Positions 8,411 through 32,631 of a DNA stretch of 37,485 nucleotides are shown here, piece by piece. Location: assembly GCA_018900975.1 (NCBI GenBank), contig JAHIFK010000234.1, positions 1-37,485 of the forward strand, given 5' to 3'. How positions within the stretch are numbered: the first letter of the stretch is position 1; every line of letters starts with the position of its first letter. The notes beneath the pieces are model-generated. The model was not told the origin of the DNA and made no database searches. It saw nothing but the letters and a program-made list of their open reading frames with translations. The translations under genes were made by a program, and so were the position numbers. This stretch comes from Methanobacteriota archaeon (GTDB lineage Archaea > Halobacteriota > Methanosarcinia > Methanosarcinales > Methanoperedenaceae).

Positions 8411-8436
8411 ATAAGAAATTATAGGAGATAAATAAC

Positions 8437-8880: not shown

Positions 8881-8905
8881 TATGGATTAGACAAAAGGAG
8901 ACGAA

Positions 8906-9453: not shown

Positions 9454-9461
9454 GAGCAATA

Positions 9462-9887: not shown

Positions 9888-9929
9888 TTAGAGGAAGCAG
9901 AATTTGCAGCAAGGATCAATTTAAAAAAC

Positions 9930-12523: not shown

Positions 12524-12536
12524 GGGGTCTTGCCTG

Positions 12537-14221: not shown

Positions 14222-14223
14222 TT

Positions 14224-15021: not shown

Positions 15022-18000
15022 CAACAGCCCCACCTAAGATCGACTCAAGGGACCAGCAGATGCTGTATGAACAGGTAAGAGATCTGGCTCTTTACTATTG
15101 TCCCGAATGGATAGAGGAGGATGTGATCGGGTCGGATAAAAATGCCGATGCCCTTATGCGTATATTCGCCAGGATGATGGAGATAATTATCCAGCGGTTG
15201 AACAAAGTCCCTGATAAGAATTTTCTGGCTTTTCTGGATATGGTGGGAACAAGCTTATTTCCTCCCAGAGTGGCCAGAGCACCTCTGACCTTTACCATGG
15301 CAAAAGGGGAAACTAAATACAGGAAAATATCAGGCAGGACCCAGGTAGCTACTGCCCAGACAAAGGAAAAAGAAGCCATCGTTTTTGAAACCGCAAAAGA
15401 CCTCACTATTATCTCTCCAAAACTGGTCGGGGTTGTAAGTCTTTCACCGGATGAAGATAAATGGATGGATCAATCCACTATTCTATCTGGTAATACAAAA
15501 GAGGCTGTTGTCCTTTTCAAAGGGAAAGAGCTTGTTCCTCACCGTCTTTACATAGGTGACAGTGATCTTTTCAGTTTTAAGGAAAAAGCTGTCATTAAAC
15601 TTGATATTACTTTCAATACAAGTATAAAGGGTAATGTTCCCTGGAACGTGAAGTGGTACTACTATGATGTAAATTCAGTTCCAAAATCCCTGGATGTTGC
15701 AGACATTACTTTTCAGGATGTTTCAGCTAAGAATGACAAAAAAGTTACCAGCCGTTTGCAGATAGCAAGTATTACTTTTACACCAGTTGGGGGAATTTCG
15801 GAAAATACCCTGATGGAAAAGGCTCAAAAGAAAAGCTGGACAAAGCACTGGTTATATGCAGAATTGAACGCTCCAATTCAAAAAGATAACCTGCCTTTGA
15901 TCAATACGATAAGAGGGAGTGTTTCGATAGCCCCTGGTTCTCCTGTCCCTCCGGATGTGGCTTTTTTCAATAATTTCCCGATTGATCTGACGAAGGATTT
16001 TTATCCTTTCGGAGAAAGACCAAAATTCAATGATACTTTTTATATTGGCTCAAAGGAGGTCTTTTCTAAAAAAGACGCAACGATAACATTGGCATTCACA
16101 CTTTCAGAAGGAGTGGATAAACCTGAACCTGAAAAAATAAAACTTCGATGGGAATTCTGGAACGAAGATCGCTGGGAGCTGATAGGAGAAACTACAAAGG
16201 AAGGCTCAAAAACAGAAGGTTTCACAGACGGGACAAAGGCTTTCACAAACAATATTGCAGGGCAGCATGAAGTCAGTTTCATTTGTAAAAAGATCGAACA
16301 GCTTGAAATCAATGCGCAAGAGAGCCACTGGATCCGGGTGCGCATCATCGAAGGCGATTACGGCAGGGAGGCAAAATATTATGAACAGACCGCAGGCACT
16401 CACAATCTGGTTGAGATCATCAATGGGATCAAACAAAAAAAGGTTGTGGGAAGTGATGGAGAAATAACCTATACACCCCTGAGCGATGAAAAGACCGAGT
16501 GGATAGTCAGCCCACCCACCTTCAAGCCACCATCCATAAAGAATTTTACCCTGAACTATTCTTTTGATGTAAAAAATAAAGAACCGCAGGTCGTTCTTAA
16601 ATACAATGATTTCACCTATCGCGATGAAACTGTAGCGTGCATGGATGACAATAGTACATTCACCCCATTCCAAACTGTGGCTGATACCCAGAAGGCAGTC
16701 TATCTGGCATTTGACCAGGATATTTCAACACTGCCGGTGACCATATTCTTCCCGCTCCTTGAAAATATGTTCACTGCTGTCATGGATCCTGCTTCTTACA
16801 GCCCTCCGGTCCTTGCATGGGAATACTGGAACGGGAAGACCTGGTCCCTTCTGAGCGCTGAAGATGGAACCAGGAATCTGACTAAAATGGAGATGATACA
16901 ATTCCTCGCACCAAATGATGTGAAAAAGAGATACTGCTTTGATGTCGAAACGGAATATTACTGGATGCGGGCGAGGCTGGATAAAGGCAATTATGAGAAC
17001 TTCCCCCGGTTGAGAGGCGTCTACACCAATACTGTCTGGGCATATAATCACATCACGGTTGACAGTGAGATCCTGGGTTCAAGCAACGGGAAAACCAGTC
17101 AGGTTTTTAATTTTTCCCGTTTCCCTGTTTTGCCAGGACAAAAAGTCATGGTGCGTGAGATCTCACTTACAGAAAAAGAGAAATCGACTATCCGCTTTGA
17201 GGAAAGAAAGGATGCGATAGAAGAGATAAAGGATGATGACGATAATGTTGTTGGGTACTGGGTGCGATGGCATGAAAAGAACCATTTTTACTCTTCAGGT
17301 CCTCACAGCCGGCACTATATTATTGACCGCAACAAAGGGACGATAACCTTTGGTGATGGCGAAAGGGGCATGATCCCTCCTGCAGAAAAGGATAATATCA
17401 GGTCAAGTTACCAGTATGGGGGAGGAGTGAAAGGGAATTTTGTGGGTGCGCGATCCATAGCAAAGCTCAGGACGGCTTTTCCTTTTGTTGAATCAGTCAC
17501 CAATCATGAAGATTCCGATGGCGGTGGGGACCAGGAGAATTTTGACCGGCTCAGGGAACGAGGTCCGCAGACCATCAAGCATCGAGATCGGGCAGTTACG
17601 TACGAGGACTTTGAATGGCTGGTAAGGGAGGCTTCCCCCAAGGTCGCCAAGGTCAAATGTATGGCTACCACGGATCCGGGCAAAAATTTCAGACCAGGCT
17701 GGATAACTATGATCATTGTCCCGGATGAACGTGAAAAACCAAAACCTATCCCAACCCAGGGATTGATCAACGAAATCCAGGACTATATATTTTCCAGGAC
17801 GTCCACATACCTCACAACTTACCCTTCACAGATCACTCTTATTGGCCCGGGCTATATTCAGGTGGGAGTAGAGGTGAAGGCGCATTTCATATCGATGGCG
17901 GATGCAAAAATCATCGAAGGAAGGATCATCGATAATCTTAAGCGGTTCTTTCACCCGCTCATTGGCGGCCCGGAAAAAAAGGGATGGAACTTTGGAAGAA

Positions 18001-18818
18001 AAGTATACATATCAGAAATTTATGAAGTCATCGAAAATACAGAAGGTGTGGACTATGTAGGAGAGCTATTTCTTAATGCTTCGATCCAGGTATATGAATT
18101 GATCTTAGAGGAGAAAATAAATATTACTGGAACCTACCCTGAAAACAGCAGGATAGAAACAAGCGATGGAAAAATCTCATTTTCCCTCGCTGAAAAACTT
18201 CAGGAAGGAACGATAGATACGCTGAATGTTGTGGGTTTTAAGGAGGGAGATAATATCATATTGAGCAATAAGGACAGGAGCACAACCCTTGTAATAAGGT
18301 CAGTATCCCATGAGAGGCTTGGTGATATCCTTGAATGTGAGCCATCCCAGATCGATAATGCATATCCTGTGCGCAGTATAGTTAAAACATCTGATGGGAG
18401 GATAAGATCTTTCAGTCTCAATGAAGTTCCTGCAGGCGATATAAGTCTTAATCCTCTTAAGATATCGATCCTTAAACAGGGCGAAAGTTTTGGACTGACC
18501 CTTAAAGATGATCCTTCTAAACAATTGACCGGAAAAATAAAAGCAGTGAGTGACCGGGTTGAAAAAATATTCGTTGAGATGAACTACCTTGTTTATTCAG
18601 GTGAGCATTCAGTGAACACAACAGTAACTAGAGGATCCGTATATCCGTATCTAATGAATAACAAAACAAAGGAAATACACGATCTGAACAATGAACAACC
18701 AAACTGCAAACTGGATGACATAAAGAAAGACAATATGATTTTTATCAGAACTCTCGATAATATCGATAAATACGATTACTGTCGATGGTGCTTTGGACAA
18801 GAAATGTCAAAACGTTAA
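15018..18818 (+). CDS. Large baseplate J-like wedge protein (Afp11/12-like)
   Basis: IDSRD, RLNKVPDKNFLAFL, LGSSNG, ITFGDGERGMIPP, RDRAVTYEDFEWL and FFHPL.GG....GWNFGR motifs. Confidence 0.9.
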   Translation: MTTAPPKIDSRDQQMLYEQVRDLALYYCPEWIEEDVIGSDKNADALMRIFARMMEIIIQRLNKVPDKNFLAFLDMVGTSLFPPRVARAPLTFTMAKGETKYRKISGRTQVATAQTKEKEAIVFETAKDLTIISPKLVGVVSLSPDEDKWMDQSTILSGNTKEAVVLFKGKELVPHRLYIGDSDLFSFKEKAVIKLDITFNTSIKGNVPWNVKWYYYDVNSVPKSLDVADITFQDVSAKNDKKVTSRLQIASITFTPVGGISENTLMEKAQKKSWTKHWLYAELNAPIQKDNLPLINTIRGSVSIAPGSPVPPDVAFFNNFPIDLTKDFYPFGERPKFNDTFYIGSKEVFSKKDATITLAFTLSEGVDKPEPEKIKLRWEFWNEDRWELIGETTKEGSKTEGFTDGTKAFTNNIAGQHEVSFICKKIEQLEINAQESHWIRVRIIEGDYGREAKYYEQTAGTHNLVEIINGIKQKKVVGSDGEITYTPLSDEKTEWIVSPPTFKPPSIKNFTLNYSFDVKNKEPQVVLKYNDFTYRDETVACMDDNSTFTPFQTVADTQKAVYLAFDQDISTLPVTIFFPLLENMFTAVMDPASYSPPVLAWEYWNGKTWSLLSAEDGTRNLTKMEMIQFLAPNDVKKRYCFDVETEYYWMRARLDKGNYENFPRLRGVYTNTVWAYNHITVDSEILGSSNGKTSQVFNFSRFPVLPGQKVMVREISLTEKEKSTIRFEERKDAIEEIKDDDDNVVGYWVRWHEKNHFYSSGPHSRHYIIDRNKGTITFGDGERGMIPPAEKDNIRSSYQYGGGVKGNFVGARSIAKLRTAFPFVESVTNHEDSDGGGDQENFDRLRERGPQTIKHRDRAVTYEDFEWLVREASPKVAKVKCMATTDPGKNFRPGWITMIIVPDEREKPKPIPTQGLINEIQDYIFSRTSTYLTTYPSQITLIGPGYIQVGVEVKAHFISMADAKIIEGRIIDNLKRFFHPLIGGPEKKGWNFGRKVYISEIYEVIENTEGVDYVGELFLNASIQVYELILEEKINITGTYPENSRIETSDGKISFSLAEKLQEGTIDTLNVVGFKEGDNIILSNKDRSTTLVIRSVSHERLGDILECEPSQIDNAYPVRSIVKTSDGRIRSFSLNEVPAGDISLNPLKISILKQGESFGLTLKDDPSKQLTGKIKAVSDRVEKIFVEMNYLVYSGEHSVNTTVTRGSVYPYLMNNKTKEIHDLNNEQPNCKLDDIKKDNMIFIRTLDNIDKYDYCRWCFGQEMSKR

Positions 18819-18827
18819 GGTGTAAAG

Positions 18828-20549
18828 ATGTCATTACCATTGCCAAACCTGGATGATAGGAACTTTGATGACCTGATGAAGGAAGCACGCTCCCTCATAC
18901 CTGTATATAATAAGGAGTGGACAAACTATAATCCATCAGATCCAGGAATAACCATGCTTGAGCTTTTTTCATGGTTAAGTGAAATGTCAATCTACCGTAT
19001 CAATAAGGTTCAGGAAGAGAACTATCGAAAGTTCCTGAAACTTCTCGATATTGAATATCTGTTCAGGTGGAATGAGATCCCTGGGGAGGATATGAATGAT
19101 CTAATTGATTTTTTTATAGAGACATATGGCTTCAACTGGATAAAGATCGCACAAATTGAAAAAATCGATGGGGGCAGGACTGCCAGGATCTATATTGAAA
19201 ATGAATTTGAAAATAAATCTATTCTTCTCAAACTTAATGATAAAGATGATAAAGTAACGATCATATTAGATAATGGAGGCACCCACGACTTAAATGTTAA
19301 AAAAGAACTATGGATTTACGAGAACCAGAAATCAGATTATTTATTTAGATGGGATAACGTCCCCGGGAGCGACAAAGACAGACTTATAACTTTTTTAACT
19401 CAAAGAGATAATGAATCTCTATGGATAAAAAATGCAAACCTCGAAAAAACCGATGATGGTAGAACTATAAAATTCTTTAATGAAACGCAATTTATTCTTC
19501 TGCAGCTCATTGTTGAAGATAATAAGGTCCTACTATATATGGGGACAACTTCTGGGATCCGTGAGAAAAAGTATGAATTTGATGTGATAAAGGACTTGAA
19601 AATATATGAAACCATCGAGTTTGATATCCGCAGAGGTCTGGAATCCATATCACAGCGCTACAGAGCGATAACGTCTGATGATTTTGAGTTTCTGGCTAAT
19701 CAATGTATCGAGACATTACAGAAAGGACTTTCTGGAAGAGCAATTTATGTTAATAACAGAGACCTTGAATATGGTAAGGTCACAAGTGAGGAGACTCAAC
19801 CCGGGCATGTTTCAGTTATCATCATTCCAGGTATTGAAAAACCTGTATTCAGCTGGGATGACATCCCGGGAAATGATAACATCCGGCTTATTGAATTCCT
19901 TGCGCAGACCTGTGGAGGGGAGTGGATAAAAACAGCCAGGATCGAAAAATCAGGTGGCAATATTATAAAAATTTTTGAGGTCACCGGCATTGCACCTGCT
20001 CCCGAAAGTGCCAGGTCTATTTCGCTCAAATTAAACGCGACACAGGATAAGGTAATTCTGGAATCACCATTCTACATTTCTTACGAATTTTCATTGAAAA
20101 AGGAGAAGGGAAAATTAAACGTATATTGTTATACAGTAGACGGTAAGCCATCTGAACTGCTAAAAGACCAGGTCAAGAAATATCTGGCTAAAAGAAAACT
20201 CGTCACGACCAGATTGCACATTGTGGGCCCGGATTATTACAAGGTGACTCTGGATGTGTACATTTCATTAAAAGATAACACTCTGGAAAAGACCGTTATT
20301 GATGATCTGGAAAAGAGCATAAGGGAGTATTATGACCCTCTTGCAGGTGGAAGAGAGGGTAAAGGATGGCCTCTTGGAAGGGATCTTTATCGTTCTGAGA
20401 TATACCAGCTTATTGAAAGCATACAGGGCGTTGATCATGTGGAAAAAATCGAGATAACCAGTTCTAATGTAGAATCTGTTGAGTTGGAAGAATATCAATT
20501 GATATGGCTGGATCAAAATGCAATTAAGATAAAGGTGCATTATGAATAG
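18828..20549 (+). CDS. Baseplate J/gp47-like protein with three inserted ~90-aa repeats
   Basis: LPLPNLDDR.F.DL..EA, WTNYNPSDPGITMLELFSWL, RAITSDDFE and DPL.GG..G.GWPLGR motifs. Confidence 0.9.
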   Translation: MSLPLPNLDDRNFDDLMKEARSLIPVYNKEWTNYNPSDPGITMLELFSWLSEMSIYRINKVQEENYRKFLKLLDIEYLFRWNEIPGEDMNDLIDFFIETYGFNWIKIAQIEKIDGGRTARIYIENEFENKSILLKLNDKDDKVTIILDNGGTHDLNVKKELWIYENQKSDYLFRWDNVPGSDKDRLITFLTQRDNESLWIKNANLEKTDDGRTIKFFNETQFILLQLIVEDNKVLLYMGTTSGIREKKYEFDVIKDLKIYETIEFDIRRGLESISQRYRAITSDDFEFLANQCIETLQKGLSGRAIYVNNRDLEYGKVTSEETQPGHVSVIIIPGIEKPVFSWDDIPGNDNIRLIEFLAQTCGGEWIKTARIEKSGGNIIKIFEVTGIAPAPESARSISLKLNATQDKVILESPFYISYEFSLKKEKGKLNVYCYTVDGKPSELLKDQVKKYLAKRKLVTTRLHIVGPDYYKVTLDVYISLKDNTLEKTVIDDLEKSIREYYDPLAGGREGKGWPLGRDLYRSEIYQLIESIQGVDHVEKIEITSSNVESVELEEYQLIWLDQNAIKIKVHYE

Positions 20550-21210
20550 CGGGGAAAAAGAAAGTAAATACATCAAATACCTTCCCTCTATTTACCAGAG
20601 GGATAAGAACGATCCGTCTTCGGCTTTCCTGGGGAATTTCCTGAAAGCGTTTGAAAAAGTACTTTCAGGTATTGAAGATGGGGTAAGCATAGATGGCAAA
20701 CCGGTTAAAGGGATCGAAGAGATCCTGGACAATATCCATAATTACTTTGATCCGCATGAAACCCCGGCGGATTTCTTGAACTGGCTCGCAGGCTGGGTGG
20801 CACTCATCCTTAAAGAGGGTGAAACATGGAGTGAGGAAAAAAAACGGGAACTTATTTCCAGGATAGTTCCGCTGTACCAGAGGCGAGGCACCCGGGAAGG
20901 TCTGGAGGAATATCTGAAAATATATGTGGGCGAGGGTGTGAGCGTTTTTGACGACCTTGGTCCTTTAAGGGTGGGTGTCAGTTCCAGGGTGGGTGTAGAT
21001 ACGGTGATCGGGGGACTACCTCCATATTTCTTCATCGTGGAAGTAACATTCCCTTCACCGAACCCCAGGCTAATTGGCGAGAAAAAAAAGGCTATCAAGG
21101 AAATAATAGATATAGAGAAGCCTGCACATACGTTTTACCGGATAAATATTAACATAACAACGTTTAGGGTCGGCTATTCAAGAGTGGAACTGGACTCGCT
21201 ATTGTGGTGA
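20542..21210 (+). CDS. P2 gpI-like phage tail/baseplate protein
   Basis: YLPSIYQ, FLKAFE, YFDP..TP.DFLNWLAGW, LYQRRGTREGL and EKPAHT motifs. Confidence 0.9.
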   Translation: MNSGEKESKYIKYLPSIYQRDKNDPSSAFLGNFLKAFEKVLSGIEDGVSIDGKPVKGIEEILDNIHNYFDPHETPADFLNWLAGWVALILKEGETWSEEKKRELISRIVPLYQRRGTREGLEEYLKIYVGEGVSVFDDLGPLRVGVSSRVGVDTVIGGLPPYFFIVEVTFPSPNPRLIGEKKKAIKEIIDIEKPAHTFYRININITTFRVGYSRVELDSLLW

Positions 21211-21234: not shown

Positions 21235-23874
21235 ATGGCAATGAAAAGATTGAATTATTTTAAAGGTGAGTTTTTAAATAAAGACGACTTCGAAGAAGAG
21301 CAGAATTATCATGTGGACATGCTCAGAAAACACAATGAGAACCTGCATAAAGGGGGCATTGCGGCAGGACTTGAAGTACCGGAAACCTTTGAAGATGGAA
21401 CTGCTGTAATTGGCGGGACAGACCTGTTAATTAAACGGGGTACGGCCATCGATGATTCAGGAAGACAGATAGTATTAACAGAAGATAAACGGATCACTGC
21501 TTCCACAATTATTCCTGCTGGTAGCATACAGGCAACATTTTATCTAATAATATATTACCATGAAGAACCGACTGACCCGAGGGAGGACAATCCAGGAAAA
21601 CTTGAGAATTCGCGGGTAAAAGAGGAGCCGGTGATTACCTTTGTCGAAGTTCTGCAAGCTAATGATCCGAAAAAGCCTCTCATTCTTGCAACAGTAACTT
21701 TAGATTCTAATAAAAAAATTACTAAAATCGATATAAATGGCAGGAAATATGCTTCTTCCAGGATCGCTGATAGATCCATCACATCCATAAAGATCGATAG
21801 TGGAGCCGTGAAAAAAGAGCACCTTAACATTGATATTTTTAATAACCTCCTGTCTTCTCCCGATGGCACCATTGGCATCCAGGTTGACAGTCCCAACAAA
21901 ATTATTAAATTAACGTCTCAAGTCGCAACCGGAGTGGTGGAGTTTTCAGGATTTACACCATCTGTTAAAAACGTCTCGGGATTGATCGATCCCGGATTTG
22001 GACCTGGACCCATATCGGTAATTATGGGTCTTGATGAGACACATACTTCGAACAAACAGGTGTTCATTGGCGCTTCTGAGGCTTCTGGATTTTTTAATTT
22101 ACCCGATGTTTTGCTTGGAGCCCTTGTGGATACGTCGACAGGCAATTTCAGAGTAGGAATGCGTGTAAATGGAACGGCAACATCTCCTATCCGGGTAAGG
22201 TGGTGGGCATTCAAACCCGGCCAGGACAAGGGTACATTGGTTGTGGTTTCGGTTTCGATCGATCCATTCAATCCCAGTTTGCGACCAGGAAGGACTCTTC
22301 AATTTGAAGCTAACGTGACAGGAACTGGCAACAAGGCGGTCGACTGGAGTGTACAGGAAACTGATGGTGGAAGCATAACCAATACAGGTCTCTATACAGC
22401 CCCGATAACTCCGGGGACATACCATGTAATTGCCACAAGCCATGCAGACGCAACTAAGAGCGGAATGACATCTGTTGCGGTCACCGAAGATATCACAGTA
22501 TCCATAGCTCCGGCAACGGCCAGGGTTTTTGCAGGCGATCAACAACAGTTCAAAGCAAGCGTGACAGGCAGCTCAAATCCTGGAGTAACCTGGAGTGTGA
22601 AGGAAACTAAAGGTGGCACAATAGATAACACAGGTCTCTATACAGCTCCGGCAATAGCGGGAACTTATACTGTCGTAGCAACAAGCAAAGCAGATAATAC
22701 CAAAACAGCAACAGCACAAGTAGAGGTACAACCTAAAGTGGCTGTGACTATCAGCCCTGCAGAAGTCAACCTTTTCTCAGGTAAGCAGCAACAATTCAAG
22801 GCTAACGTAACTGGCAGCGCCGATACCGGTGTAATATGGAGCGTACAGGAAGGGTCCGGGGGCGGAACCATAGATGGCACAGGTCTGTATACAGCACCAT
22901 CAGGGATTATCCGAGTCCTAGAGCCTATAATGGCCCCCAGTATATCGGAACCCAGACTTTCCCCAATAGTGACAGGGACTGGTCTTACCCCCATTACACC
23001 TCCCACTACCATTATAACTCCCATAACTCCTGTTTTATCCCCTGGAATCATAGGAACGTATCATGTTGTCGCTACAAGTAAAGCAGATCCCACAAAGACG
23101 GCTGTGGCGATCGTTACTGTGACAATGGCTTCTGTTTCTATCAGCCCGGCACAGGTAACCATTTTACCGGGTAGGACCCAAAAGTTCACAGCAACAGTTC
23201 TGGGTGTACCCGATACCAGAGTGAACTGGAGCACAACAGGTGGAACTATAGATGCCACTGGCCTCTATACGGCTCCAGTAACGCCAGGAACATATCAAGT
23301 GGCAGCCACAAGCGTTGCCGACTCGACCAAAACAGCCACATCATCTGTAACTGTTACGCCCGGTATTTCCGTGTCTATAAATCCTGCGTCTACAACTGTA
23401 GAAATTAATAAAGGAGTACAGTTTAGAGCGAATGTAACAGGGACGACCAATACCGCTGTAACCTGGAGAGTCCAGGAAACAAACGGAGGCAGCATTAACA
23501 CGACTGGTTTATATATTTCCCCGGGCACTCCTGGAACGTATCATGTAGTAGCCACAAGCGTTGCTGACACGACCAGGACAGCCACATCAACTGTTACAGT
23601 AACTTCAATAAAGACAGATCTAGAAAAGTTGATCGAAAAGGCAAAAGATACAGATAAAATAGCTAAAGAATTAGAAAAGGCAAAAGATGCGGATAAAACT
23701 GCTGAAAAGTTAGCCAAAGAGATCGAAACCGGAGGAGGAATTACTCCCATAATAAACCCTGGCCCTATAATGTCCCCCGAGGGAGGTTCCACTTTCGATG
23801 GTGTAACAAACGGACGTGCTTTTATCCGCCCGGAAGAACGGCCTGATATAGGGACGATAACGCAGCCAAAATGA
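21235..23874 (+). CDS. Putative tail fibre/adhesin with five Ig-like repeats and a charged C-terminal tail
   Basis: N-terminal baseplate-anchor motif RLNYFKGEFL...DFEEEQNYH...GI..GLEV...GTAIDDSGRQIVL; five V.I.P...Q.F.A.V.G.....V.W...GG.I...GLY..P...GTY.V.ATS repeats; follows gpI. Confidence 0.8.
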   Translation: MAMKRLNYFKGEFLNKDDFEEEQNYHVDMLRKHNENLHKGGIAAGLEVPETFEDGTAVIGGTDLLIKRGTAIDDSGRQIVLTEDKRITASTIIPAGSIQATFYLIIYYHEEPTDPREDNPGKLENSRVKEEPVITFVEVLQANDPKKPLILATVTLDSNKKITKIDINGRKYASSRIADRSITSIKIDSGAVKKEHLNIDIFNNLLSSPDGTIGIQVDSPNKIIKLTSQVATGVVEFSGFTPSVKNVSGLIDPGFGPGPISVIMGLDETHTSNKQVFIGASEASGFFNLPDVLLGALVDTSTGNFRVGMRVNGTATSPIRVRWWAFKPGQDKGTLVVVSVSIDPFNPSLRPGRTLQFEANVTGTGNKAVDWSVQETDGGSITNTGLYTAPITPGTYHVIATSHADATKSGMTSVAVTEDITVSIAPATARVFAGDQQQFKASVTGSSNPGVTWSVKETKGGTIDNTGLYTAPAIAGTYTVVATSKADNTKTATAQVEVQPKVAVTISPAEVNLFSGKQQQFKANVTGSADTGVIWSVQEGSGGGTIDGTGLYTAPSGIIRVLEPIMAPSISEPRLSPIVTGTGLTPITPPTTIITPITPVLSPGIIGTYHVVATSKADPTKTAVAIVTVTMASVSISPAQVTILPGRTQKFTATVLGVPDTRVNWSTTGGTIDATGLYTAPVTPGTYQVAATSVADSTKTATSSVTVTPGISVSINPASTTVEINKGVQFRANVTGTTNTAVTWRVQETNGGSINTTGLYISPGTPGTYHVVATSVADTTRTATSTVTVTSIKTDLEKLIEKAKDTDKIAKELEKAKDADKTAEKLAKEIETGGGITPIINPGPIMSPEGGSTFDGVTNGRAFIRPEERPDIGTITQPK
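22246..23604 (+). repeat. Five tandem ~80-aa Ig-like (Big_2-type) domains
   Basis: GLYTAP x4 plus GLYISP; GTY.V.ATS.AD.T(K/R) x5. Confidence 0.9.
23635..23712 (+). repeat. 39-bp in-frame tandem repeat x2 in the fibre C-terminus
   Basis: Encodes EKAKDTDKIAKEL / EKAKDADKTAEKL. Confidence 0.85.
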
Positions 23875-24605
23875 ACAAGAAGATCCTTGTCGTTGCGAAT
23901 AATAGTGACCTGCAGGCAAAAGAACTTGTTAAAAGATGGAGTTTTCAGGGTGCATGCCTGCTGACCCCGGAGAACCTGTCCGTGGAAGGCTGGCGATACC
24001 ACACGGGAGACATTGATAATGGTATTGCAATTGTAGATGGACTTCCATTTTTTTCGCACGATATCATCGGGGTGCTCACAAGGATGCACTGTGTTATTGA
24101 GAATGATCTGCGTCATATTGTCCCGACTGACAGGGCATACGTTGCCTCAGAGATGAGCGCCTTTTTGCTGGCATGGTTGTTTTCCCTCAAGTGTCCCGTA
24201 CTTAACAGACCTACACCAACCTCCCTTTCAGGGCCATACTGGAGGCATGAAAAGTGGATTTTTACTGCAGCCAGGCTCGGTATCCCGGTCGCTCCATCCC
24301 ACAGGAGCGTAATTTTTCAGGCAAATCAAATTTTGACTCCTGAAAGTGGAGGGGTTACCGTAACCATTGTTGGTAGTAAGCATTTTGGGAATGTTGATAA
24401 GGTTCTGATAGGACATGCACGTAAACTTGCCGACACCGCAGGAGTCGATCTTCTTTCGGTCAGATTTAGCGGGCATGGACCCGACTCCGTTTTCATGGGT
24501 GCCAATCTTGTAACTGGTTTTGTTCCTGAAGATATGGCTGATGCAATATTCGAGTACTTCCAGGGCAAAGCTGACCGTGAAAATCGCCAGGAGATGGAAG
24601 GTTGA
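23871..24605 (+). CDS. Degenerate ATP-grasp-like protein (probable non-catalytic partner)
   Basis: YVASE....L.AWL.SL.CPVLNRP...AARLGIPV matches the N-terminal half of RimK/MvdD-type ligases; central lid region missing; ExN replaced by GAN; ATGA overlap with the fibre gene. Confidence 0.65.
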   Translation: MNKKILVVANNSDLQAKELVKRWSFQGACLLTPENLSVEGWRYHTGDIDNGIAIVDGLPFFSHDIIGVLTRMHCVIENDLRHIVPTDRAYVASEMSAFLLAWLFSLKCPVLNRPTPTSLSGPYWRHEKWIFTAARLGIPVAPSHRSVIFQANQILTPESGGVTVTIVGSKHFGNVDKVLIGHARKLADTAGVDLLSVRFSGHGPDSVFMGANLVTGFVPEDMADAIFEYFQGKADRENRQEMEG

Positions 24606-25534
24606 TCTTACTATGGGGACTTCTTCAGGATAGACCTCTTTCAGCCGTATATGATGCCCTTAAAAGGAAGGGGTCGAATGTGATTTTCCTTGACCAGATG
24701 AAAGTTCTTGAGACACAGGTAGAACTTTATGTGGATTCCGATATCCGGGGTTTCCTGCATACTTGTGACTGGACAATTTCACTTGAAGCGATAACAGCAG
24801 TTTATATACGGACATACGACTGGCGACAGTTGCCGGAAATCAAAAAAGGAGGATATGGCAGCCCGGCATGGAATCATGCTATGCTCCTGGAAGATGTTCT
24901 GTCTTCATGGCTTGAGATCACACCCGCACTTGTTGTGAATCGTTTGTCGGCTATGTCTTCAAATAATTCCAAACCTTACCAGGCTTCGCAAATCAGGGCA
25001 TTTGGTTTTGGTATTCCTGATACACTTATCACTACAGACCCCTCTGCAGTGCTTGAGTTCCTGGAAAGGCATGGGGAAGTCATATACAAGTCTATTAGTG
25101 GTGTCCGAAGCATCGTCTCACGCCTGACAAAGGAAACCCTTTGTCGCCTTGATGATATCCTCTGGTGTCCGACCCAGTTCCAGGAGTATATACCGGGTAA
25201 TGATTATCGTGTCCATGTGGTGGGGGATGATATATTCCCATGCGAAATAGTCTCCGAAGCTGACGACTACAGGTATGCTGCAAGCAAAGGAGCTGGGATT
25301 ACCGTGCGCCCCTGTGAAATTCCACAGGATTGCATAGATCGGTGCAGGGCACTTTCTAAGGCGACGGGACTTATATTTGCCGGGATTGACCTGCGGTTCA
25401 CGCCAGAAGCCAAGTGGTATTGCTTCGAGGTCAATCCATCCCCGGGATTTACTTATTATCAGAACATGACAGATCAGCCAATTGCCGATGCTGTTGCCAG
25501 GCTTTTGGTGAAAGGTGCGGGAAATTATAGTTAG
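24602..25534 (+). CDS. RimK/MvdC-MvdD-type ATP-grasp ligase
   Basis: VVNR...NNSKPYQ, IPDTLITTDP, VIYKSISG, PTQFQEYIPGNDYRVHVVG, DYR, FAGIDL and FEVNPSPG motifs; TTGA overlap with the preceding gene. Confidence 0.92.
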   Translation: MILLWGLLQDRPLSAVYDALKRKGSNVIFLDQMKVLETQVELYVDSDIRGFLHTCDWTISLEAITAVYIRTYDWRQLPEIKKGGYGSPAWNHAMLLEDVLSSWLEITPALVVNRLSAMSSNNSKPYQASQIRAFGFGIPDTLITTDPSAVLEFLERHGEVIYKSISGVRSIVSRLTKETLCRLDDILWCPTQFQEYIPGNDYRVHVVGDDIFPCEIVSEADDYRYAASKGAGITVRPCEIPQDCIDRCRALSKATGLIFAGIDLRFTPEAKWYCFEVNPSPGFTYYQNMTDQPIADAVARLLVKGAGNYS

Positions 25535-25587: not shown

Positions 25588-25647
25588 AATATATTAGTCG
25601 GGAAACCGAATATGGCTGGACTATGAAACGAAAATGTGGAGGTTCCA

Positions 25648-26862
25648 ATGAGTGAAAGATTAAAATTGGCAATAAGAAAACAGAAAATGAAAGATATGGA
25701 TTCGCCAAAACTAAATGTCACAGTTTCCCGATCCATCAGATCGGCTGCAGACAAAATTATGTTCCTTCAACAAACAATAGGAAATCAGGCTGTTCAGAGG
25801 CTGATGAGGTCAGGAACTTTGCAGGCAAAACTCAGGATAGGCGCACCGGGAGATGTTTACGAGCAGGAGGCTGACAGGGTGGCGGATGCAGTGATGAGGA
25901 TGCCGCAGCCGCAGGCAGTATCCGGTGGTACACCCTACATCCAGAGGGCTTCCCCGAAATGTGAAGAGGAGGAACTGAAGAGGCAACCGATAAAAGAAGA
26001 GGAGGAAGAGGAGAAGCTGCAAAGGAAACCTGTAGAAGAGGAGGAGGAGCTTCAGGCGAAGGCAACATCAGGTAGTATTTCTGAAGTAAATCCTGATATC
26101 GAATCAAATATCCAGTCTCTCAAAGGCGCAGGACAAACATTGTCCCCACCCGAAAGGGCATTCTTTGAACCGCGTTTCGGGGCTGATTTCGGAAACGTGC
26201 GCGTGCACAACGACACGCGGGCAGCCTACCTGGCTCAGTCAGTCAATGCTCGTGCTTTTACCCTCGGGAACGATGTGGTGTTCGGCGCCGGGCAGTATGC
26301 TCCGGGGACTAGCGAAGGGCGATGTTTGCTGGCACATGAATTGACACATGTTCGCCAGCAGCGATCTTCTTCGAATAGCTTATTAATCAATCGCTACCCA
26401 CGGGGGGCATTGGAAGAACTGGCGATTAACAGAGGAACAAAATCGGGAACCAAGACCAGAACAGCTGTCGGGTCTGGTGTTAAAATATGTTATGTTCCTT
26501 TATCAATTTTTCCTAATTGGCTACCTAATTGGGCAGCGCCAGCAAACCATGCATTTATAGAGTTCGACGATGGATGGTCTGCAGGTTTTACAATGCTGGA
26601 AGGAGAAAGTAAAGAAGATGCCAGGGTAATCTCTCCAGAGCCGAGACGAAATGACTCGCGAAAATGGTGCTTCAATGCAGAAAGAAAAGATTCTGAAGAA
26701 TGTCAGTCAAAACCGATCAATGATATAAAGAGTTGTATTAAAGCAGAAGCAAGAAAAAATCCTGGTAAATACCATCTCATTAGAAATAACTGTGGAGATT
26801 GGGTAAAAAGAACTTTTGATAATTGTTGCTTAAAACCAAATACTCCCTGGCATATCTATTAA
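25648..26862 (+). CDS. DUF4157 (eCIS core) effector 1 with C-terminal permuted papain-like (NlpC/P60) domain
   Basis: LQQTIGNQAVQR, QAKLRIGAPGDVYEQEADRVA and EPRFGADFGNVRVH...LLAHELTHVRQQ motifs; C-terminal NHAFI...YHLIRNNCGDWV; ATG at 25648 after GGAGGT. Confidence 0.85.
   Translation: MSERLKLAIRKQKMKDMDSPKLNVTVSRSIRSAADKIMFLQQTIGNQAVQRLMRSGTLQAKLRIGAPGDVYEQEADRVADAVMRMPQPQAVSGGTPYIQRASPKCEEEELKRQPIKEEEEEEKLQRKPVEEEEELQAKATSGSISEVNPDIESNIQSLKGAGQTLSPPERAFFEPRFGADFGNVRVHNDTRAAYLAQSVNARAFTLGNDVVFGAGQYAPGTSEGRCLLAHELTHVRQQRSSSNSLLINRYPRGALEELAINRGTKSGTKTRTAVGSGVKICYVPLSIFPNWLPNWAAPANHAFIEFDDGWSAGFTMLEGESKEDARVISPEPRRNDSRKWCFNAERKDSEECQSKPINDIKSCIKAEARKNPGKYHLIRNNCGDWVKRTFDNCCLKPNTPWHIY
25993..26360 (+). 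repeat. DUF4157 block nearly identical to ~28390-28760
   Basis: KEEEEEEKLQRKPVEEEEELQAK...LLAHELTH conserved at DNA level between effectors 1 and 3. Confidence 0.85.
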
Positions 26863-26879
26863 ATTTCAAGGAGATAACA

Positions 26880-28316
26880 ATGAGTGAGGCAGTCAGAGCA
26901 TCGGTCAAAGCAACCGACACAAAAAAAGAGAATCAAGTTTCACAGGTGCAGAAGGGTAATTTTAAACAGCCACTCAGTTCACCTGTTGAGCAAATTCTCT
27001 TTCTTCAAAGAACCTTAGGCAACCAGGCAGTCCAAAAATACATGAAGTCTGGAGCGCTTCAGGCTAAACTCAAGATAGGCGCACCTGACGATTTTTACGA
27101 GCAGGAGGCTGACAGGGTGGCAGACGCAGTTTTGAGGATGCCGCAGCCGCAGGTTTCTGAAGTTGTACATTCGGACAGAACCAGGGGTATTCAGAGGCAG
27201 TGTCCCAGATGTACGAAAAAGAATGCAAAGGAAGAAGAAGTGATACAGACCAAAGTAGCTGCCGGACATACCCCAAAAGTCACACTAGATGTGGATAACA
27301 GCATCCGCGGTATCCGCGGCGGTGGGCAGTCCCTGCCTGAATCTGTTCGCAGTTTCTTCGAGCCGCGTTTCGGTCATGATTTCAGCCGCGTGAGAGTGCA
27401 TAATGATGTAAAGTCATCCGAATCCGCACAAATGCTCAATGCAAAAGCGTATACACTTGGCTCTGATATAGTGTTCGGAGCAGGGCAGTATGCTCCGGAT
27501 ACGGCTGAAGGTAAACGTTTGGTGGGACACGAGCTAGCTCATGTTATCCAGCAGGACAGGGATCGGAATAACATTATACGCAGGTACACTGCTGCAGAAC
27601 GCACAACATGTCCATGCCTTGACTGGTCTCTTATTCGAATGAATACGACTGCCAGATTGATGCAAACAGGCGGTGAATTCACAGGCAGGGTTTATGCCTC
27701 AGCATTCATGCGGCGTTATCTGGACGGGATCAGCAGTGATGCATACGTGAATTTCTATGATTTTAAATCAGATACGGGAGGTGCTGCCGCGTTGACTTCA
27801 GCCAATAATGATCTGAGCAACCTGTTCCTTGCCGAGGCAGATAGCTTACCCTGTAGCGGTTCACGGAGCGGTTTGACAAAGAACGTGACGGTTCCTGGAC
27901 ACTTTACACATGGCACAGACCTTTTTTATGCAATGGGCGGATTTTCACTGGAAGCCCGTGGCACAGGTTCTGTCGAAAAAACCTGTGATGACACCGGAAC
28001 CTGTACGGGTATTACGGCAACAATAGATATCCGTTACCGTGTCAATGACCTGTATGACTGGAAAGCAGACCCCGGAGGCTGCACGCCAAGTACAGGGGAA
28101 TCAGGCTGCACTGCAAACACAAAAACAGTTACATTGCCTGTCATCGGGCTTATTTGTGATGAATGCCTGAACCGGCTGGCCATCCACGGGTGGGCAAGTG
28201 AGTTCATGGTCAAGGTGCGGGGAAGTGCAAGTGGTTATACCATTAGGGGCCCCTGTGGTTTCCGAAATCCCACGACCGAACCTAACACCAGGGATAATCA
28301 GCGTGGAGATGCTTGA
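26880..28316 (+). CDS. DUF4157 effector 2 with Cys-rich C-terminal domain of unknown function
   Basis: Same leader motifs and HELAH; ATG at 26880 after AGGAGA; unique C-terminal ~243 aa. Confidence 0.85.
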   Translation: MSEAVRASVKATDTKKENQVSQVQKGNFKQPLSSPVEQILFLQRTLGNQAVQKYMKSGALQAKLKIGAPDDFYEQEADRVADAVLRMPQPQVSEVVHSDRTRGIQRQCPRCTKKNAKEEEVIQTKVAAGHTPKVTLDVDNSIRGIRGGGQSLPESVRSFFEPRFGHDFSRVRVHNDVKSSESAQMLNAKAYTLGSDIVFGAGQYAPDTAEGKRLVGHELAHVIQQDRDRNNIIRRYTAAERTTCPCLDWSLIRMNTTARLMQTGGEFTGRVYASAFMRRYLDGISSDAYVNFYDFKSDTGGAAALTSANNDLSNLFLAEADSLPCSGSRSGLTKNVTVPGHFTHGTDLFYAMGGFSLEARGTGSVEKTCDDTGTCTGITATIDIRYRVNDLYDWKADPGGCTPSTGESGCTANTKTVTLPVIGLICDECLNRLAIHGWASEFMVKVRGSASGYTIRGPCGFRNPTTEPNTRDNQRGDA

Positions 28317-28386
28317 ACATGAAATAATATGATTCATTGCAGAGGGACAGAGATGAGAGAAAAGATAAGTTACAAAAACAGAACCC

Positions 28387-29256
28387 ATGAAAGAAGAAGA
28401 AGAGGAGAAGCTGCAAAGGAAACCAGTGGAAGAGGAGGAGGAAGAGCTTCAGGCGAAGGAAACATCAGGTAGTATCTCTGAAATAGATCCTGATCTCGAA
28501 TCAAATATCCAGTCCATCAAAGGCGCAGGGCAACCATTGTCTGCGTCTGAAAGGGCATTCTTTGAACCGCGTTTCGGAGCTGATTTTGGCAAAGTACGCG
28601 TGCACAACGACACGCGGGCAGCCGATGTGGCTCAATCGGTCAATGCCCGTGCTTTTACACTTGGACACGATGTGGTGTTCGGTGCAGGACAATATTCTCC
28701 GGGAAAGGGTGAAGGGAGACGTTTGCTGGCACATGAATTGACACATGCGGTACAGCAACAGGGGTTGAAATCCAGGGCAGAAAATCATGAAAGCAGAAAA
28801 AATATTGGTGCCGCAGGAATGACCGGACCGATGTTCCATAACATGAAAGATGGCACACTGCAGAAAGCGGCGCCAGCAATCGGAATTGGTGCCCTGGCGG
28901 GAAAGTGCATCATCGGCGCGATTATTGGAGTCCTCTTAGACCTCGGCATACAGGGCGCATTGCACATGTGGAAGAAGCGGACATGGCGTTTCTGGAGAAT
29001 GACCGTAGATTATTGCTCCCTCATACTCTCTGCTGTTTTGAGTTGCATCGGCGGAATTGCAGCAGCTAAATGGCTTGAGCCATGGATAAACAGTGCATTA
29101 GGTGGCAGGCTGGGGGGAATAGGGGGTACGTTACTTGGCAGAATTCTTATATTTATCGCCAACAAACTTGGTATCGGAGTTCCGAAATTCATTTTAAAGA
29201 CGTTGCTGAAATTAAACTGCATCAGCAAAGATCAGGCGAAAGTTATCGGAGGATAG
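28387..29256 (+). CDS. 5'-truncated DUF4157 effector 3 with hydrophobic Gly-rich C-terminal domain (possible orphan cassette or pseudogene)
   Basis: Starts inside the acidic linker; lacks the LQRxxGN/EQEAD leader; HELTH intact. Confidence 0.75.
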   Translation: MKEEEEEKLQRKPVEEEEEELQAKETSGSISEIDPDLESNIQSIKGAGQPLSASERAFFEPRFGADFGKVRVHNDTRAADVAQSVNARAFTLGHDVVFGAGQYSPGKGEGRRLLAHELTHAVQQQGLKSRAENHESRKNIGAAGMTGPMFHNMKDGTLQKAAPAIGIGALAGKCIIGAIIGVLLDLGIQGALHMWKKRTWRFWRMTVDYCSLILSAVLSCIGGIAAAKWLEPWINSALGGRLGGIGGTLLGRILIFIANKLGIGVPKFILKTLLKLNCISKDQAKVIGG

Positions 29257-29397
29257 GGAAATCTTTAGGTTCCTCCCTCCGAAGTATCCGTAACAAGTTT
29301 CGATGATGCACGGATCCATGAAAACGAAAAGCCGCTTGATCAGTGTCATACGTATTCGATTTTGAACTAAACATGTTAACATGAAAAATTAATTTTT

Positions 29398-30072
29398 ATG
29401 CAAACAGAAACTCAGAATAAAAATAAAGAGGTATTGCGTGAAGAACACAAGGAATTAGCCGAAGGTCTGCTCTACACCCACACCCGCATCAACGCCAACA
29501 CCAAAAAAACATTAGAATCAACCTCATTCCTCTACGCTCTCATCGAACTGCTCAGCGAAAAGGGATTGATCTCGATCGAGGAACTGGACAAGCGGAAAAA
29601 TCAGGTGGCAGAGAGGTTGGTAAAGAAGTTCGTAGAGAGCGGCATGGGACTTATGTATCAGGATCCTGAGGAAGACAAATATACGTTCGAACATGAAGCC
29701 TGTGTGGACTGCGGGAGCAGGATGCAAACATGCAAGGCTATGTGCTGCAAATTCCCGTTCGCCCTGTCTAAACAGGATGTGGACGAGGGTATCATCCGCT
29801 GGGAGTTCGGGAGACCATATCTTATCGCACATGATACTGATGGTTACTGTGTTCATATGGATAGGGAGACGTACCACTGCAAAGTGCGCGACCACCGCCC
29901 TGTGCCGTGCAGGGGTTTTACCTGCGAGAATAATGAAAAATGGCATGTCTGGAATGATTATGAGGCAATGGTCATTAACCAGGAAATGATGGAAAAGATC
30001 AATCAGGATAACAAAAAAATTTATGCGATTTCAAAGACAAAATCAAATGGAGGAGAGGCTGGAAGTTCATAG
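29398..30072 (+). CDS. YkgJ/CxxCxxCC-family cysteine-cluster protein with N-terminal helical extension
   Basis: DC..R...CKAMCC, GYCVH, YHCKV...RPVPCRGFTC motifs. Confidence 0.85.
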   Translation: MQTETQNKNKEVLREEHKELAEGLLYTHTRINANTKKTLESTSFLYALIELLSEKGLISIEELDKRKNQVAERLVKKFVESGMGLMYQDPEEDKYTFEHEACVDCGSRMQTCKAMCCKFPFALSKQDVDEGIIRWEFGRPYLIAHDTDGYCVHMDRETYHCKVRDHRPVPCRGFTCENNEKWHVWNDYEAMVINQEMMEKINQDNKKIYAISKTKSNGGEAGSS

Positions 30073-30108
30073 AATAGTCTTCATCCTTTTATTAGCAGTT
30101 TGTTGTGT

Positions 30109-30124
30109 TAAAAGTTATAATACA
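30109..30124 (+). promoter_or_regulatory. Probable BRE/TATA promoter of effector 4
   Basis: AAAAG-TTATAATA about 40 bp upstream of the ATG at 30160. Confidence 0.45.
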
Positions 30125-30139
30125 TATATTTAAGATCAT

Positions 30140-30425
30140 TTAATTTCAAGGATATAACAATGAGTGAGGCAATCAGAACAGCGGTCAAAGCACCTGAGAT
30201 AAAAAAAGAGAATCAGGGTTTGCAGGTACAGAAAGACAATTTCTACCAGCCACTCAGTTCACCTGTTGAACAAATTCTTTTTCTTCAAAGGACAGTCGGT
30301 AACCATGCTGTGCAGAGGATCATGAAGTCGGGAGCGATGCAGGCTAAACTCAGGATAGGTGCGCCGGGCGATGTTTATGAGCAGGAGGCTGACAGGGTGG
30401 CGGATGCAGTGATGAGGATGCCGGA
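30140..30425 (+). repeat. 5' UTR plus leader block highly similar to ~26860-27145
   Basis: ATTTCAAGGA(G/T)ATAACAATGAGTGAGGCA...CAGCCACTCAGTTCACCTGTTGA...GAGCAGGAGGCTGACAGGGTGGC shared by effectors 2 and 4. Confidence 0.85.
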
Positions 30426-32631
30426 GCCAAATGCGGTTTCTGGAAAGACATCAGATAATCCCGTCCAGCCCGCATGTCCGAAGTGCTCAGATCGGCGCCT
30501 GCCGGAAGAGCAAGATATCTTGCAGCTAGAAGAAGTCCCGGGCTCGACTCTTGAAATCAAGCAGGGAATGGAAACCGATATTAATGCCATCAGAAGCGGT
30601 GGTCAACCATTGCCTGAATCTGCGCGGGTTTTCTTTGAGCCTCGTTTTGGACTGGATTTCAGCGGAGTGAGGGTGCATACGGATGCGAAGGCGGCGGATG
30701 CGGCGCGAGCAGTGAATGCGCGGGCGTTTACGGTGGGAAGGGATGTGGTGTTCGGAAAGGGAGAATATGCGCCCATGACAGAAACCGGAAAGACCCTGAT
30801 GGCGCATGAGTTGACACATGCAGTGCAGCAACGATCAGCCCCTCTTCTTGATAACATTCAACGTTTCAGTTACGGTGAACATCAATCAGTAGGTGATATC
30901 GGTTCTGGAGGGAAATATGTTATCCTTTTTGAGGGAAGGGGGGGTTTACCTGAATATAAGATCAGTTACGGAGAGATGGTAGCCCTGGCAGGGGACTATT
31001 TTGGGTCTCTGGATGAGATGAAAAGGCTTGCTTCCACTGCATCAGGACAGCGTAAGCTTGATTATGCCCGTTCAAAAGGGGGCGCAGTTAATGAGCCTAT
31101 TGGTATTACTGAAGAAGAAAAAAAAGAAATTGATGACCTCTATTTTAGATTAAATCTGAGTAATTTTCACCACTTTTCCCGAACTACGACCCACGACAAT
31201 AACCTGAATTATTACCTGAAAGGGCATGAAAAAGCCTTGAATGAAGCATTCATGGCAAAGATGAGAGGTAAATCCATTGATGAAGCGGTGCTTATAGAAT
31301 CTTTCCATACTCATTTCCTTACCGATGCTTTTACTGGGGGACATATCACTTCACCAAGACAGGAAGCTTCAGAGTATTGGGGAAAAATTTATCCGCTCTT
31401 TGTGGAGAACTTCTTCAATCATTTAGCAGAGCATATGGCCACTCATATTAATGATAACACGATCATAGCCGGGACGTTCAAGACCATTGCCGGACTTAAA
31501 TCAATTATTATCAGTGAGGTTAAGAGCCTGGCTCCGGCAGGGGTTAACGGATACTCCCTGGGAGGGCTCATCTCCATAGCTATTCATGACTGGTATAATA
31601 AGACAGGGCTTGATGTTGTGTCTGAAGTGGATGCAAATGGAAAGCAGGTAGAGGGGGGATACAAATGGAAGGCATTCGGTGAGATAACTAAACTGGATGA
31701 AAGAGTGGCCCAGGATCAAAAGCAGATGGTCGTTTCAGCAGTCAGGGCAGGACTCGAAGAAATATCCGTTGCCCATGAATGTGAAAACATAGAATGTTTT
31801 AAGGGAATAGGTTCAAATTCCAAGGTGGCAAAATTTGTCCCAAAAATTGATCCAACATCGAAGAGAAATATTGACTTTAAATGGAAGTTTACAACCGTTG
31901 ATGGTGTTATAAATAACAATGATTTGATGACTGCGATATCGGAGACGATAGGACCTAATGGTGAGATTGGCAAATTGTTAAGTGGAGCTGCAAAGAAATT
32001 GTCCACTTCAAAGCAGGGTACGAACCCACAGGCTGCTTTCGAAGACTGGCTATCCAGATTAAGGAATAATACAGGACTTGTATTAAAGGAAATAGCCAAT
32101 TATGTACCCGGTGGAGTCGGCCACCACTTTTCAACAGACACAATGAGCAGGGACTATATCGAAGACTTGATGAAAAATGGAAGGCTTGAGGAGCTTACTA
32201 CCGTCCAGATGGTAGGGTTTATTAATAAAATGTTAAAAGGTGCAACCGGGAATGCGGATGAACAGGCGATCCTTAAAGTGCTCCGGGCTGCTAATAAAAA
32301 GGGGAATGTTTATGAAGTTGTAAATAATGTTGGCGGGTTCTGGCGTTTAGAAAAAGACTTCCAGGGGGAAGAATGGCATCTGCTCCTCAATGTGCTCACA
32401 GAAAAATATTTCCGTATATTGCCTAATAAAACAGATTTTGTTAGATGGCTTGTTAATAACACATACAGAGAATGGGGCGAAGAGGCATGTATCACTGTTT
32501 TAAATGCTGCTAACAAGTCTGAATTCACGGACATTGTGAAAAATATTACTAAGAAGAAATTGGACAGTTTTCTAGATGGAGCCGAGCAGAAGCGATTCGA
32601 TGAGCTATTAATTATACATAATTATATTTAA
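30160..32631 (+). CDS. DUF4157 effector 4 with Zn-dependent phospholipase C-like domain and annexin-like helical C-terminus
   Basis: Leader and HELTH; then F..GEH...GD, YGEMVALAGDYF, N..HF, H..AL, FHTHFLTDAFTGGH and HD..N..GL motifs; C-terminal GATGNADEQAILKVL. Confidence 0.8.
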   Translation: MSEAIRTAVKAPEIKKENQGLQVQKDNFYQPLSSPVEQILFLQRTVGNHAVQRIMKSGAMQAKLRIGAPGDVYEQEADRVADAVMRMPEPNAVSGKTSDNPVQPACPKCSDRRLPEEQDILQLEEVPGSTLEIKQGMETDINAIRSGGQPLPESARVFFEPRFGLDFSGVRVHTDAKAADAARAVNARAFTVGRDVVFGKGEYAPMTETGKTLMAHELTHAVQQRSAPLLDNIQRFSYGEHQSVGDIGSGGKYVILFEGRGGLPEYKISYGEMVALAGDYFGSLDEMKRLASTASGQRKLDYARSKGGAVNEPIGITEEEKKEIDDLYFRLNLSNFHHFSRTTTHDNNLNYYLKGHEKALNEAFMAKMRGKSIDEAVLIESFHTHFLTDAFTGGHITSPRQEASEYWGKIYPLFVENFFNHLAEHMATHINDNTIIAGTFKTIAGLKSIIISEVKSLAPAGVNGYSLGGLISIAIHDWYNKTGLDVVSEVDANGKQVEGGYKWKAFGEITKLDERVAQDQKQMVVSAVRAGLEEISVAHECENIECFKGIGSNSKVAKFVPKIDPTSKRNIDFKWKFTTVDGVINNNDLMTAISETIGPNGEIGKLLSGAAKKLSTSKQGTNPQAAFEDWLSRLRNNTGLVLKEIANYVPGGVGHHFSTDTMSRDYIEDLMKNGRLEELTTVQMVGFINKMLKGATGNADEQAILKVLRAANKKGNVYEVVNNVGGFWRLEKDFQGEEWHLLLNVLTEKYFRILPNKTDFVRWLVNNTYREWGEEACITVLNAANKSEFTDIVKNITKKKLDSFLDGAEQKRFDELLIIHNYI

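Follow-up and report, generated by a model that had tools for sequence, protein, structure and literature searches.

What raises the question here is a fibre gene of a predicted injection machine whose reading frame runs directly into two ATP-grasp genes, so that it must be asked whether these enzymes act on the fibre and, if so, how. The window analysed (37,485 nucleotides, contig JAHIFK010000234.1 of assembly GCA_018900975.1, from an archaeon of the Methanoperedenaceae) carries this fibre gene directly after Tail_P2_I of a full extracellular contractile injection system (eCIS) locus; downstream are a degenerate ATP-grasp gene (the partner), an intact ATP-grasp ligase and four eCIS_core genes. 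The fibre stop overlaps the partner gene (ATGA at 23871-23874), which in turn overlaps the ligase gene (TTGA at 24602-24605). A sequence-only reading of the window had described this trio of open reading frames (ORFs), both overlaps, five immunoglobulin (Ig)-like domains, a charged repeat and a terminal motif, all of which were found as described in the ORF calls and the sequence check. The interpretation favored here, to which we assign a probability of about 0.5, is that ligase and partner staple the fibre tail with Lys-Asp/Glu isopeptide (lactam) bonds, as predicted from sequence, and that the tail stays on the fibre. Three findings support this interpretation: tag (repeat plus motif), partner and ligase occur jointly on carriers that are unrelated, the ligase keeps its catalytic set, and the partner shares the fold of the ligase but not its catalytic parts. 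The trio is real and conserved, and it is likely functional.

The ligase had been described as an intact RimK/MvdC-MvdD-type enzyme. It is intact and its catalytic set is kept, but it scores far better against graspetide synthetases than against RimK. The NCBIfam families TIGR04187 (GRASP_SAV_5884), TIGR04184 (MvdD) and TIGR04185 (MvdC) gave 130.7, 86.2 and 85.7 bits (cut-offs 350, 475 and 425, respectively), while rimK_fam gave 54.5 bits (cut-off 143.4), and membership of the RimK family was therefore rejected. Graspetide maturases thus outrank RimK, yet every NCBIfam cut-off was missed. With a profile built from 67 ligase homologues, the solved relatives scored 118 (PsnB), 105 (CdnC), 104 (MdnC), 92 (PruB) and 40 bits (RimK). 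In a quick tree of 61 proteins, the 44 ligases accompanied by the C-terminal motif (the follower clade) grouped together (Shimodaira-Hasegawa-like approximate likelihood ratio test, SH-aLRT, 98), on the graspetide side relative to the RimK types (SH-aLRT 92), which gives 24602-25534 its place in a RimK/graspetide ligase tree. By both profile and tree, the ligase is closer to PsnB and MdnC than to RimK. Ligases labeled eCIS and non-eCIS (our own assignment, as for all labels in the tree) are interleaved; well-supported branches force just two changes.

Residues R203, D222-Y223-R224, K124, K163, Y162, F193, Q194, D263, E276 and N278 are invariant in all 67 ligases, and R182, the equivalent of PsnB Arg192, is kept in 61 of them. 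In the alignment to PsnB, R203 corresponds to Arg213 and D222-Y223-R224 to the DFR loop, with Tyr replacing Phe, as expected of a graspetide synthetase. In addition, Y162, R182, L183 and F193 align with PsnB pocket residues for Phe15 of the leader, in a mapping whose 20-residue tag offset was inferred from the position of DFR. This pocket and Arg213 have been described for PsnB (bioRxiv 2021.03.09.434688).

The partner, previously read as a degenerate ATP-grasp gene, was borne out as a graspetide-synthetase fold that has lost its catalytic parts. The protein has no Pfam or NCBIfam match. Its predicted structure (predicted local distance difference test score, pLDDT, 92) matched MdnC (Z 18.0), PruB, AMdnB and PsnB (Z 17.1) best, with root-mean-square deviations of 4.0-4.4 over about 220 aligned residues; RimK reached a Z of 14.6. 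Aligned to the ligase profile (a weak match, E 0.012), the partner has neither the lid stretch with K163 nor the DYR loop, and it does not preserve R203 or E276/N278. Since 14 columns are invariant across 79 partner sequences and the family comprises 707 clusters at 50% identity (E up to 1e-30), the partner represents a conserved family rather than a decaying gene. A distant partner, in locus L165, clears the Pfam cut-off of the MvdD pre-ATP-grasp family. No longer, fused version of the partner was found among 2442 candidates, a result of little weight. By analogy with graspetide dimers, partner and ligase may form a heterodimer.

The fibre tail ends in a Lys/Asp/Glu repeat followed by the motif GRAFIRPEERPDIG. 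This repeat of 40 residues includes 11 Lys, 7 Glu, 5 Asp and 3 Thr, compared to 15 Lys in the whole 454-residue Ig part, in which Big_2 repeats begin at residues about 340, 422, 504, 634 and 713. Eight K-x-x-D/E, four K-D/E and three K-x-x-x-E pairs are offered by the repeat. Donor (K/T/S) residues, acceptor (D/E) residues and a recognition-type motif are thus present in the gene product next to the ligase, as expected of a graspetide precursor, but the short precursor with an N-terminal leader that typifies the canonical pathway was not found, the motif being C-terminal on an 879-residue fibre. Linkages would more likely be amides than esters, because Lys outnumbers Thr/Ser in the repeats. 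The microviridin core TxKxPSDx(D/E)(D/E) was not found in the fibre tail; with the MvdC and MvdD cut-offs missed and a partner without catalytic residues, membership of the microviridins was rejected. A loosened motif pattern matched once in six frames of the 2.44-Mb genome, in this fibre.

Comparable tags were found in the related loci. In a set of 100 distinct cores (at least 12 residues, selected as rich in K/E/D), D/E follows K 1033 times, versus 454 times in shuffles that preserve composition; K recurs at +3, giving a 3-residue period, and T/S stands two positions ahead of an acid. At least six Lys occur within the 30 residues just N-terminal to the motif in 80 of 99 carriers, compared to 0 of 94 elsewhere in the same proteins. 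Across 127 distinct motif segments, F and R are invariant and I, E and P nearly so.

The sequence-only reading implied that motif and ligase pair should be associated across genomes, and this association was found. The loci compared were the best 80 of 361 from genomes, retrieved by alignment to the ligase, and the best 80 of 460 from metagenomes, retrieved by alignment to the partner. The partner is present in all 80 genome loci, and the motif lies in the last 110 residues of the gene immediately upstream of the partner in 68 of the genome loci and 74 of the metagenome loci. Among 3675 other ORFs, the motif matched 17 times, comprising 12 further true tags (two being those of the window and of G041, a relative) and 5 chance-like matches. 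A tag profile, built from the same tags, recovers 147 of 162 loci, the missed ones including contig ends, two weak variants and four with a divergent repeat-less peptide; six loci hold several tagged genes. Motif and pair were found together across many phyla. In viral contigs, the strict DNA pattern of the motif had no matches, and a ligase scan yielded two loci, one a DUF6519 tail locus and the other with a tagged S8 protease. In L164 and L165, which hold two of the three ligases in a sample of 301 genomes of one phylum, a degenerate partner and a ligase precede small K/E/D repeat peptides, one or two per locus, which have a C-terminal helix and an N-terminal stretch that resembles the motif by eye. 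This leader arrangement, which was confined to these two sister loci, fits a recognition sequence that serves as leader in one clade and as follower in another.

Complete tagged proteins range from 63 to 1438 amino acids. At least 22 of 56 carriers scanned have DUF6519, which has been reported as the eBAP5 fibre anchor (PMC12923769), and the rest include Kelch, tyrosinase, papain, lysyl oxidase and Ig/TIG proteins as well as bare repeats. With profiles built from the window and the retrieved loci, tail structural genes were found in 22 of 80 genome loci, the tagged protein starting with a fibre anchor in 18, and in 20 of 80 metagenome loci, many of them short; L072 and L075 are further apparent tail loci with a tagged mini-fibre. 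Of the 80 genome loci, 44 carry the tag without an eCIS match, but two of these turned out to be tail loci. The coupling of fibre and ligase proposed earlier therefore recurs at contractile-tail fibres (at least 22 of 80 genome loci, the majority with DUF6519 fibres) but is not specific to eCIS, and an eCIS-specific system was rejected. In the window's own family (53 genomes), sheath was found in 33 genomes, a fibre-anchor homologue in 20 and the ligase in 2. Eleven of 12 fibre regions of relatives carry other fibres without tag or pair; in the twelfth (G041), an Ig fibre 68% identical to that of the window runs off its contig, and tag and pair lie on a different contig that presumably joins it. 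Given the scarcity of the ligase relative to the sheath and the 11 tagless fibres, fibre, tag and pair behave as a single swappable cassette.

Mechanistically, Phe of the motif would dock in the ligase pocket equivalent to that for the PsnB leader Phe15, and the ligase would use ATP to form an acyl phosphate on Asp/Glu, which would be attacked by the Lys amine to give a lactam, a step that would be repeated several times along the repeat. The dead partner would take the place of the second subunit in the usual graspetide dimer. The reaction would occur in the cytoplasm, ahead of particle release, and the stapled tail would remain attached to the fibre, giving a rigid, protease-resistant fibre tip. 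That stiffening and protease resistance are the role of the modified tip is a guess and the weakest step of the proposal; the tag on enzymes and small proteins suggests a general stabilizing or assembling role rather than target binding. The sequence-only reading had taken the repeat as a core and the motif as a follower, with macrocyclization, cross-linking or glutamylation as outcomes. Core and follower agree with a motif that travels with the pair and a repeat that is Lys-rich on unrelated carriers; macrocyclization and cross-linking stand as predictions, and glutamylation is disfavored by the rimK_fam score.

Several observations weigh against stapling of the tail. The modification and the binding of the motif are predictions from sequence and a structural model, and no experimentally characterized member of the clade was found in the literature examined. 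The ligase missed the TIGR04187 cut-off by far (131 versus 350 bits). The repeat is loose, with 48 of 142 carriers scoring weakly as K/E/D cores, and while the window repeat prefers K-x-x-D/E, the family prefers adjacent K-D/E, so that no single ring pattern stands out. Many loci are near-copies from Nostocales, with 27 cyanobacterial carriers in one cluster, and the counts given above overstate independence. In four genome loci (L025, L050, L054 and L079), the pair is accompanied by a short, divergent peptide in which the K/E repeat is absent. In the 301-genome sample, the motif is rare; the strict pattern occurred in none of the three ligase genomes and in one genome without a ligase, in which the tag profile had no match, although with just three ligase genomes one-to-one linkage is beyond the power of this sample. 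As a separate observation, the pair region in L025, L050 and L079 is followed by an APH-type kinase gene and a HopA1-family gene, and a different modification is perhaps made there.

The same isopeptide chemistry could instead act between chains, fixing the trimer at the fibre tip or linking fibres of neighboring particles. By eye, an amphipathic helix resembling an oligomerizing coil separates repeat from motif in many tags, assembled chains can be cross-linked by ThfB (PMC12291112), and a 3-residue period would suit in-register chains. Furthermore, in one of the 11 other fibre regions (L207), an S74 chaperone forms the end of the fibre that occupies this slot. The window tag, however, has a Gly/Pro spacer instead of the helix, links in characterized graspetides are within one chain, and bare repeat peptides without a folded carrier are also tagged (L005, L047 and L117), all of which makes inter-chain linkage an unlikely option. 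A wider and likewise unlikely extension sees the C-terminal repeat plus FIxxxERPxVG as a portable natural cross-linking tag, comparable to a self-encoded transglutaminase system. Whatever protein acquired the tag would be welded by the ligase/pseudo-ligase heterodimer, and injection machines might use it to lock fibre trimers covalently or tie particles into arrays. Cyclization followed by release of the tail as a free peptide product, with the fibre as a mere carrier, would agree with ordinary graspetides, which are released peptides, with the stand-alone repeat peptides in the clade, and with the diverse proteases said to adjoin predicted graspetide group 32 (PMC13097080). This is improbable, taking into consideration that no protease or peptide transporter family was found by Pfam among the window genes scanned, that in L058 and L210 the protease itself is the tagged carrier, and that a conserved cut site before the repeat was not found.

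Two further explanations do without cross-linking, and both are judged to have little chance of being correct. The ligase could add free amino acids or amines, by glutamylation as in RimK or by a similar reaction, for which weak RimK family matches and the many acceptor side chains speak; among the three chemistries originally offered, glutamylation ranks last. Against addition are the missed rimK_fam cut-off, the position on the graspetide side of the quick tree, and the Lys and acids that stand in register in the tags and thereby provide donor and acceptor in cis. RimK extends an acidic C-terminus, and the fibre ends differently, in TQPK. Alternatively, the tag could be an unmodified docking or assembly site, with the repeat as a charged helix and the pair serving as a chaperone or acting on another substrate. 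By eye, the window repeat could fold as an amphipathic helix, and some tags are nearly repeat-less. The ligase catalytic residues are nevertheless invariant in 67 of 67 sequences, many repeats (KDTKE and KEKEKD types) have no hydrophobic face, and the Lys enrichment next to the motif is preserved on unrelated carriers. Stapling of a tail that stays on the fibre is therefore retained as the preferred interpretation.

The arrangement itself is not an assembly artefact, because a single contig of run X3 (study P3), a run distinct from the possible source run, covers 21000-25890 and spans fibre and pair, with 13 differing letters and one insertion. In this near-identical strain, the insertion (~318 bases, at window ~23679) falls within the repeat, is in frame by the record coordinates and carries a copy of Ig-repeat sequence. 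The eCIS locus comprises AAA ATPase, Pvc16_N, sheath, two tubes, CIS_tube, hub, spike, PAAR, gp25, two baseplate J and Tail_P2_I (Pfam) which, together with eCIS_core, identify an eCIS locus in the window; PurP-type, eIF2-beta/TRAM and L10e/L16 genes mark the window as archaeal. Based on its position after Tail_P2_I and the absence of DUF6519, the fibre N-terminus is probably an eBAP3-like baseplate anchor; CIS13_fam scored 47 bits over residues 5-139, far under its cut-off of 370. The four eCIS_core (DUF4157) genes, whose C-terminal domains are unrelated, likely encode cargo. Coordinates are collected in Table 1.

Table 1. Features of the window and of related loci (locus names precede coordinates outside the window)
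Feature	Position	Strand	Basis or content
Fibre ORF, 879 aa	21235..23874	+	Probable eBAP3-like N-terminal anchor, five Ig-like repeats, C-terminal tag
Five Big_2-like Ig repeats (residues about 337-790)	22243..23604	+	Pfam matches
Lys/Asp/Glu repeat, 40 aa (residues 792-831), predicted modified core	23608..23727	+	Composition, family periodicity
Gly/Pro spacer of 28 aa (median in the family, 37 aa)	23728..23811	+	
Motif G-R/Q-A/S-F-I-x-x-x-E-R-P-x-V/I-G, predicted follower recognition sequence	23812..23853	+	Family conservation
Degenerate ATP-grasp partner, 244 aa, MdnC/PsnB fold with lid, ATP/Mg residues and DYR loop missing	23871..24605	+	Predicted structure, profile alignment
Graspetide-type ATP-grasp ligase, intact, 310 aa, starting at TTG	24602..25534	+	Profiles, alignment, tree
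eCIS structural locus, AAA ATPase to Tail_P2_I	3119..21210	+	Pfam matches
Four eCIS_core (DUF4157) genes, variable C-termini	25636..32631	+	Pfam; context, outside the module
Sister systems with leader arrangement	L164:4244-6653; L165:7102-9662	-; +	
Proteases carrying the tag themselves	L210:1-1878 (S8); L058:6107-7312 (papain-type)		

Other features were observed in the related loci. In L117 (2449-4419), L118 and L132, where eCIS genes are absent, a single pair is preceded by bare repeat peptides in tandem, two or three in number and all tagged. A cyanobacterial family of 250-330 residues without a Pfam match bears the tag in 27 loci (within L009-L032 and L061-L080), and an atlas search with this carrier returned hypothetical proteins only. 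In some tail loci (L004:9055-13077 and L078:8960-11266), glycosyltransferase (and methyltransferase) genes come after the ligase, and further decoration of the fibre is possible. Judged by eye from the translations, eCIS fibre genes of relatives (L197-L202) adjoin nitrogenase-like and molybdate transport genes.

The sequence-only reading knew of no description of a RiPP-eCIS hybrid (RiPP, a peptide made by the ribosome and modified after translation). No such hybrid was found in a literature search that covered a minority of the subscription papers, but Carter et al. 2026 (PMC13097080) have already catalogued the ligase clade under the name predicted graspetide group 32; the assignment is indirect, through homologues at table rows (L022, L023 and L042, 53-55% identical to the window ligase). 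By our count, 15 of the 50 group 32 rows in supplement si_004 list a peptide with an FI..RP motif, whereas the rows at L022, L023 and L042 name small unrelated ORFs as precursors and not the tagged proteins of 277-430 residues. The main text names group 32 once, for diverse neighboring proteases, and the text portions examined make no mention of fibres, follower or dead partner, although the motif may appear in the supplementary figures, which lie outside that scope. No neighboring protease was found among 30 scanned window ORFs; the tagged proteases of L210 and L058 may explain those reported for the group. In addition, "grasp" and "RimK" do not occur in the main text of PMC12923769, and none of the 11 files that supplement Makarova et al. 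2022 contains the motif strings. What is new here is thus likely the substrate logic, a natural follower tag on large proteins, including many eCIS fibres, together with a pseudo-ligase. If the tail is stapled, RiPP-type macrocyclization would not stop at small peptides, since a short tag at the C-terminus and a dedicated pseudo-enzyme would let it finish enzymes and large structural proteins as well. A post-translational step would also be added to eCIS fibre biogenesis, the precursors assigned to an entire predicted graspetide group would be corrected, and a natural tag-plus-ligase tool for protein stapling would become available.

The closest solved relatives of both genes are PsnB (plesiocin), MdnB/MdnC (microviridin), CdnC and PruB, and the ligase keeps equivalents of Arg213, the DFR-type loop and the leader-Phe pocket. 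Those enzymes act on short precursors with an N-terminal leader, whereas here the motif is C-terminal and the core sits on a fibre after 790 residues; furthermore, MdnB and MdnC are both active, while here one gene is degenerate. Tandem KxxE lactams are closed by MyxF of the myxomiditide system (MyxF/MyxD1/MyxD2; PMC12848669), and in the rosaritide system (MirB/MirC; PMC13097080) MirB requires a partner; tandem KxxE lactams and partner-dependent synthetases are the features that link these systems to the proposed one. However, MyxD2 is catalytic, MirC is SurA-like and the substrates are small leader peptides, so that neither partner is a lid-less pseudo-ligase as found here. The eCIS fibres with eBAP3 or eBAP5 (DUF6519) anchors (PMC12923769) likewise come after Tail_P2_I and have Ig-like modules and swappable tips. 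ThfB has been shown to accept a leader relocated to the C-terminus (PMC13003496) and to cyclize or cross-link whole proteins (PMC12291112); compared to these engineered systems, which form Thr-Asp esters, the system described here would represent a natural version with Lys amides.

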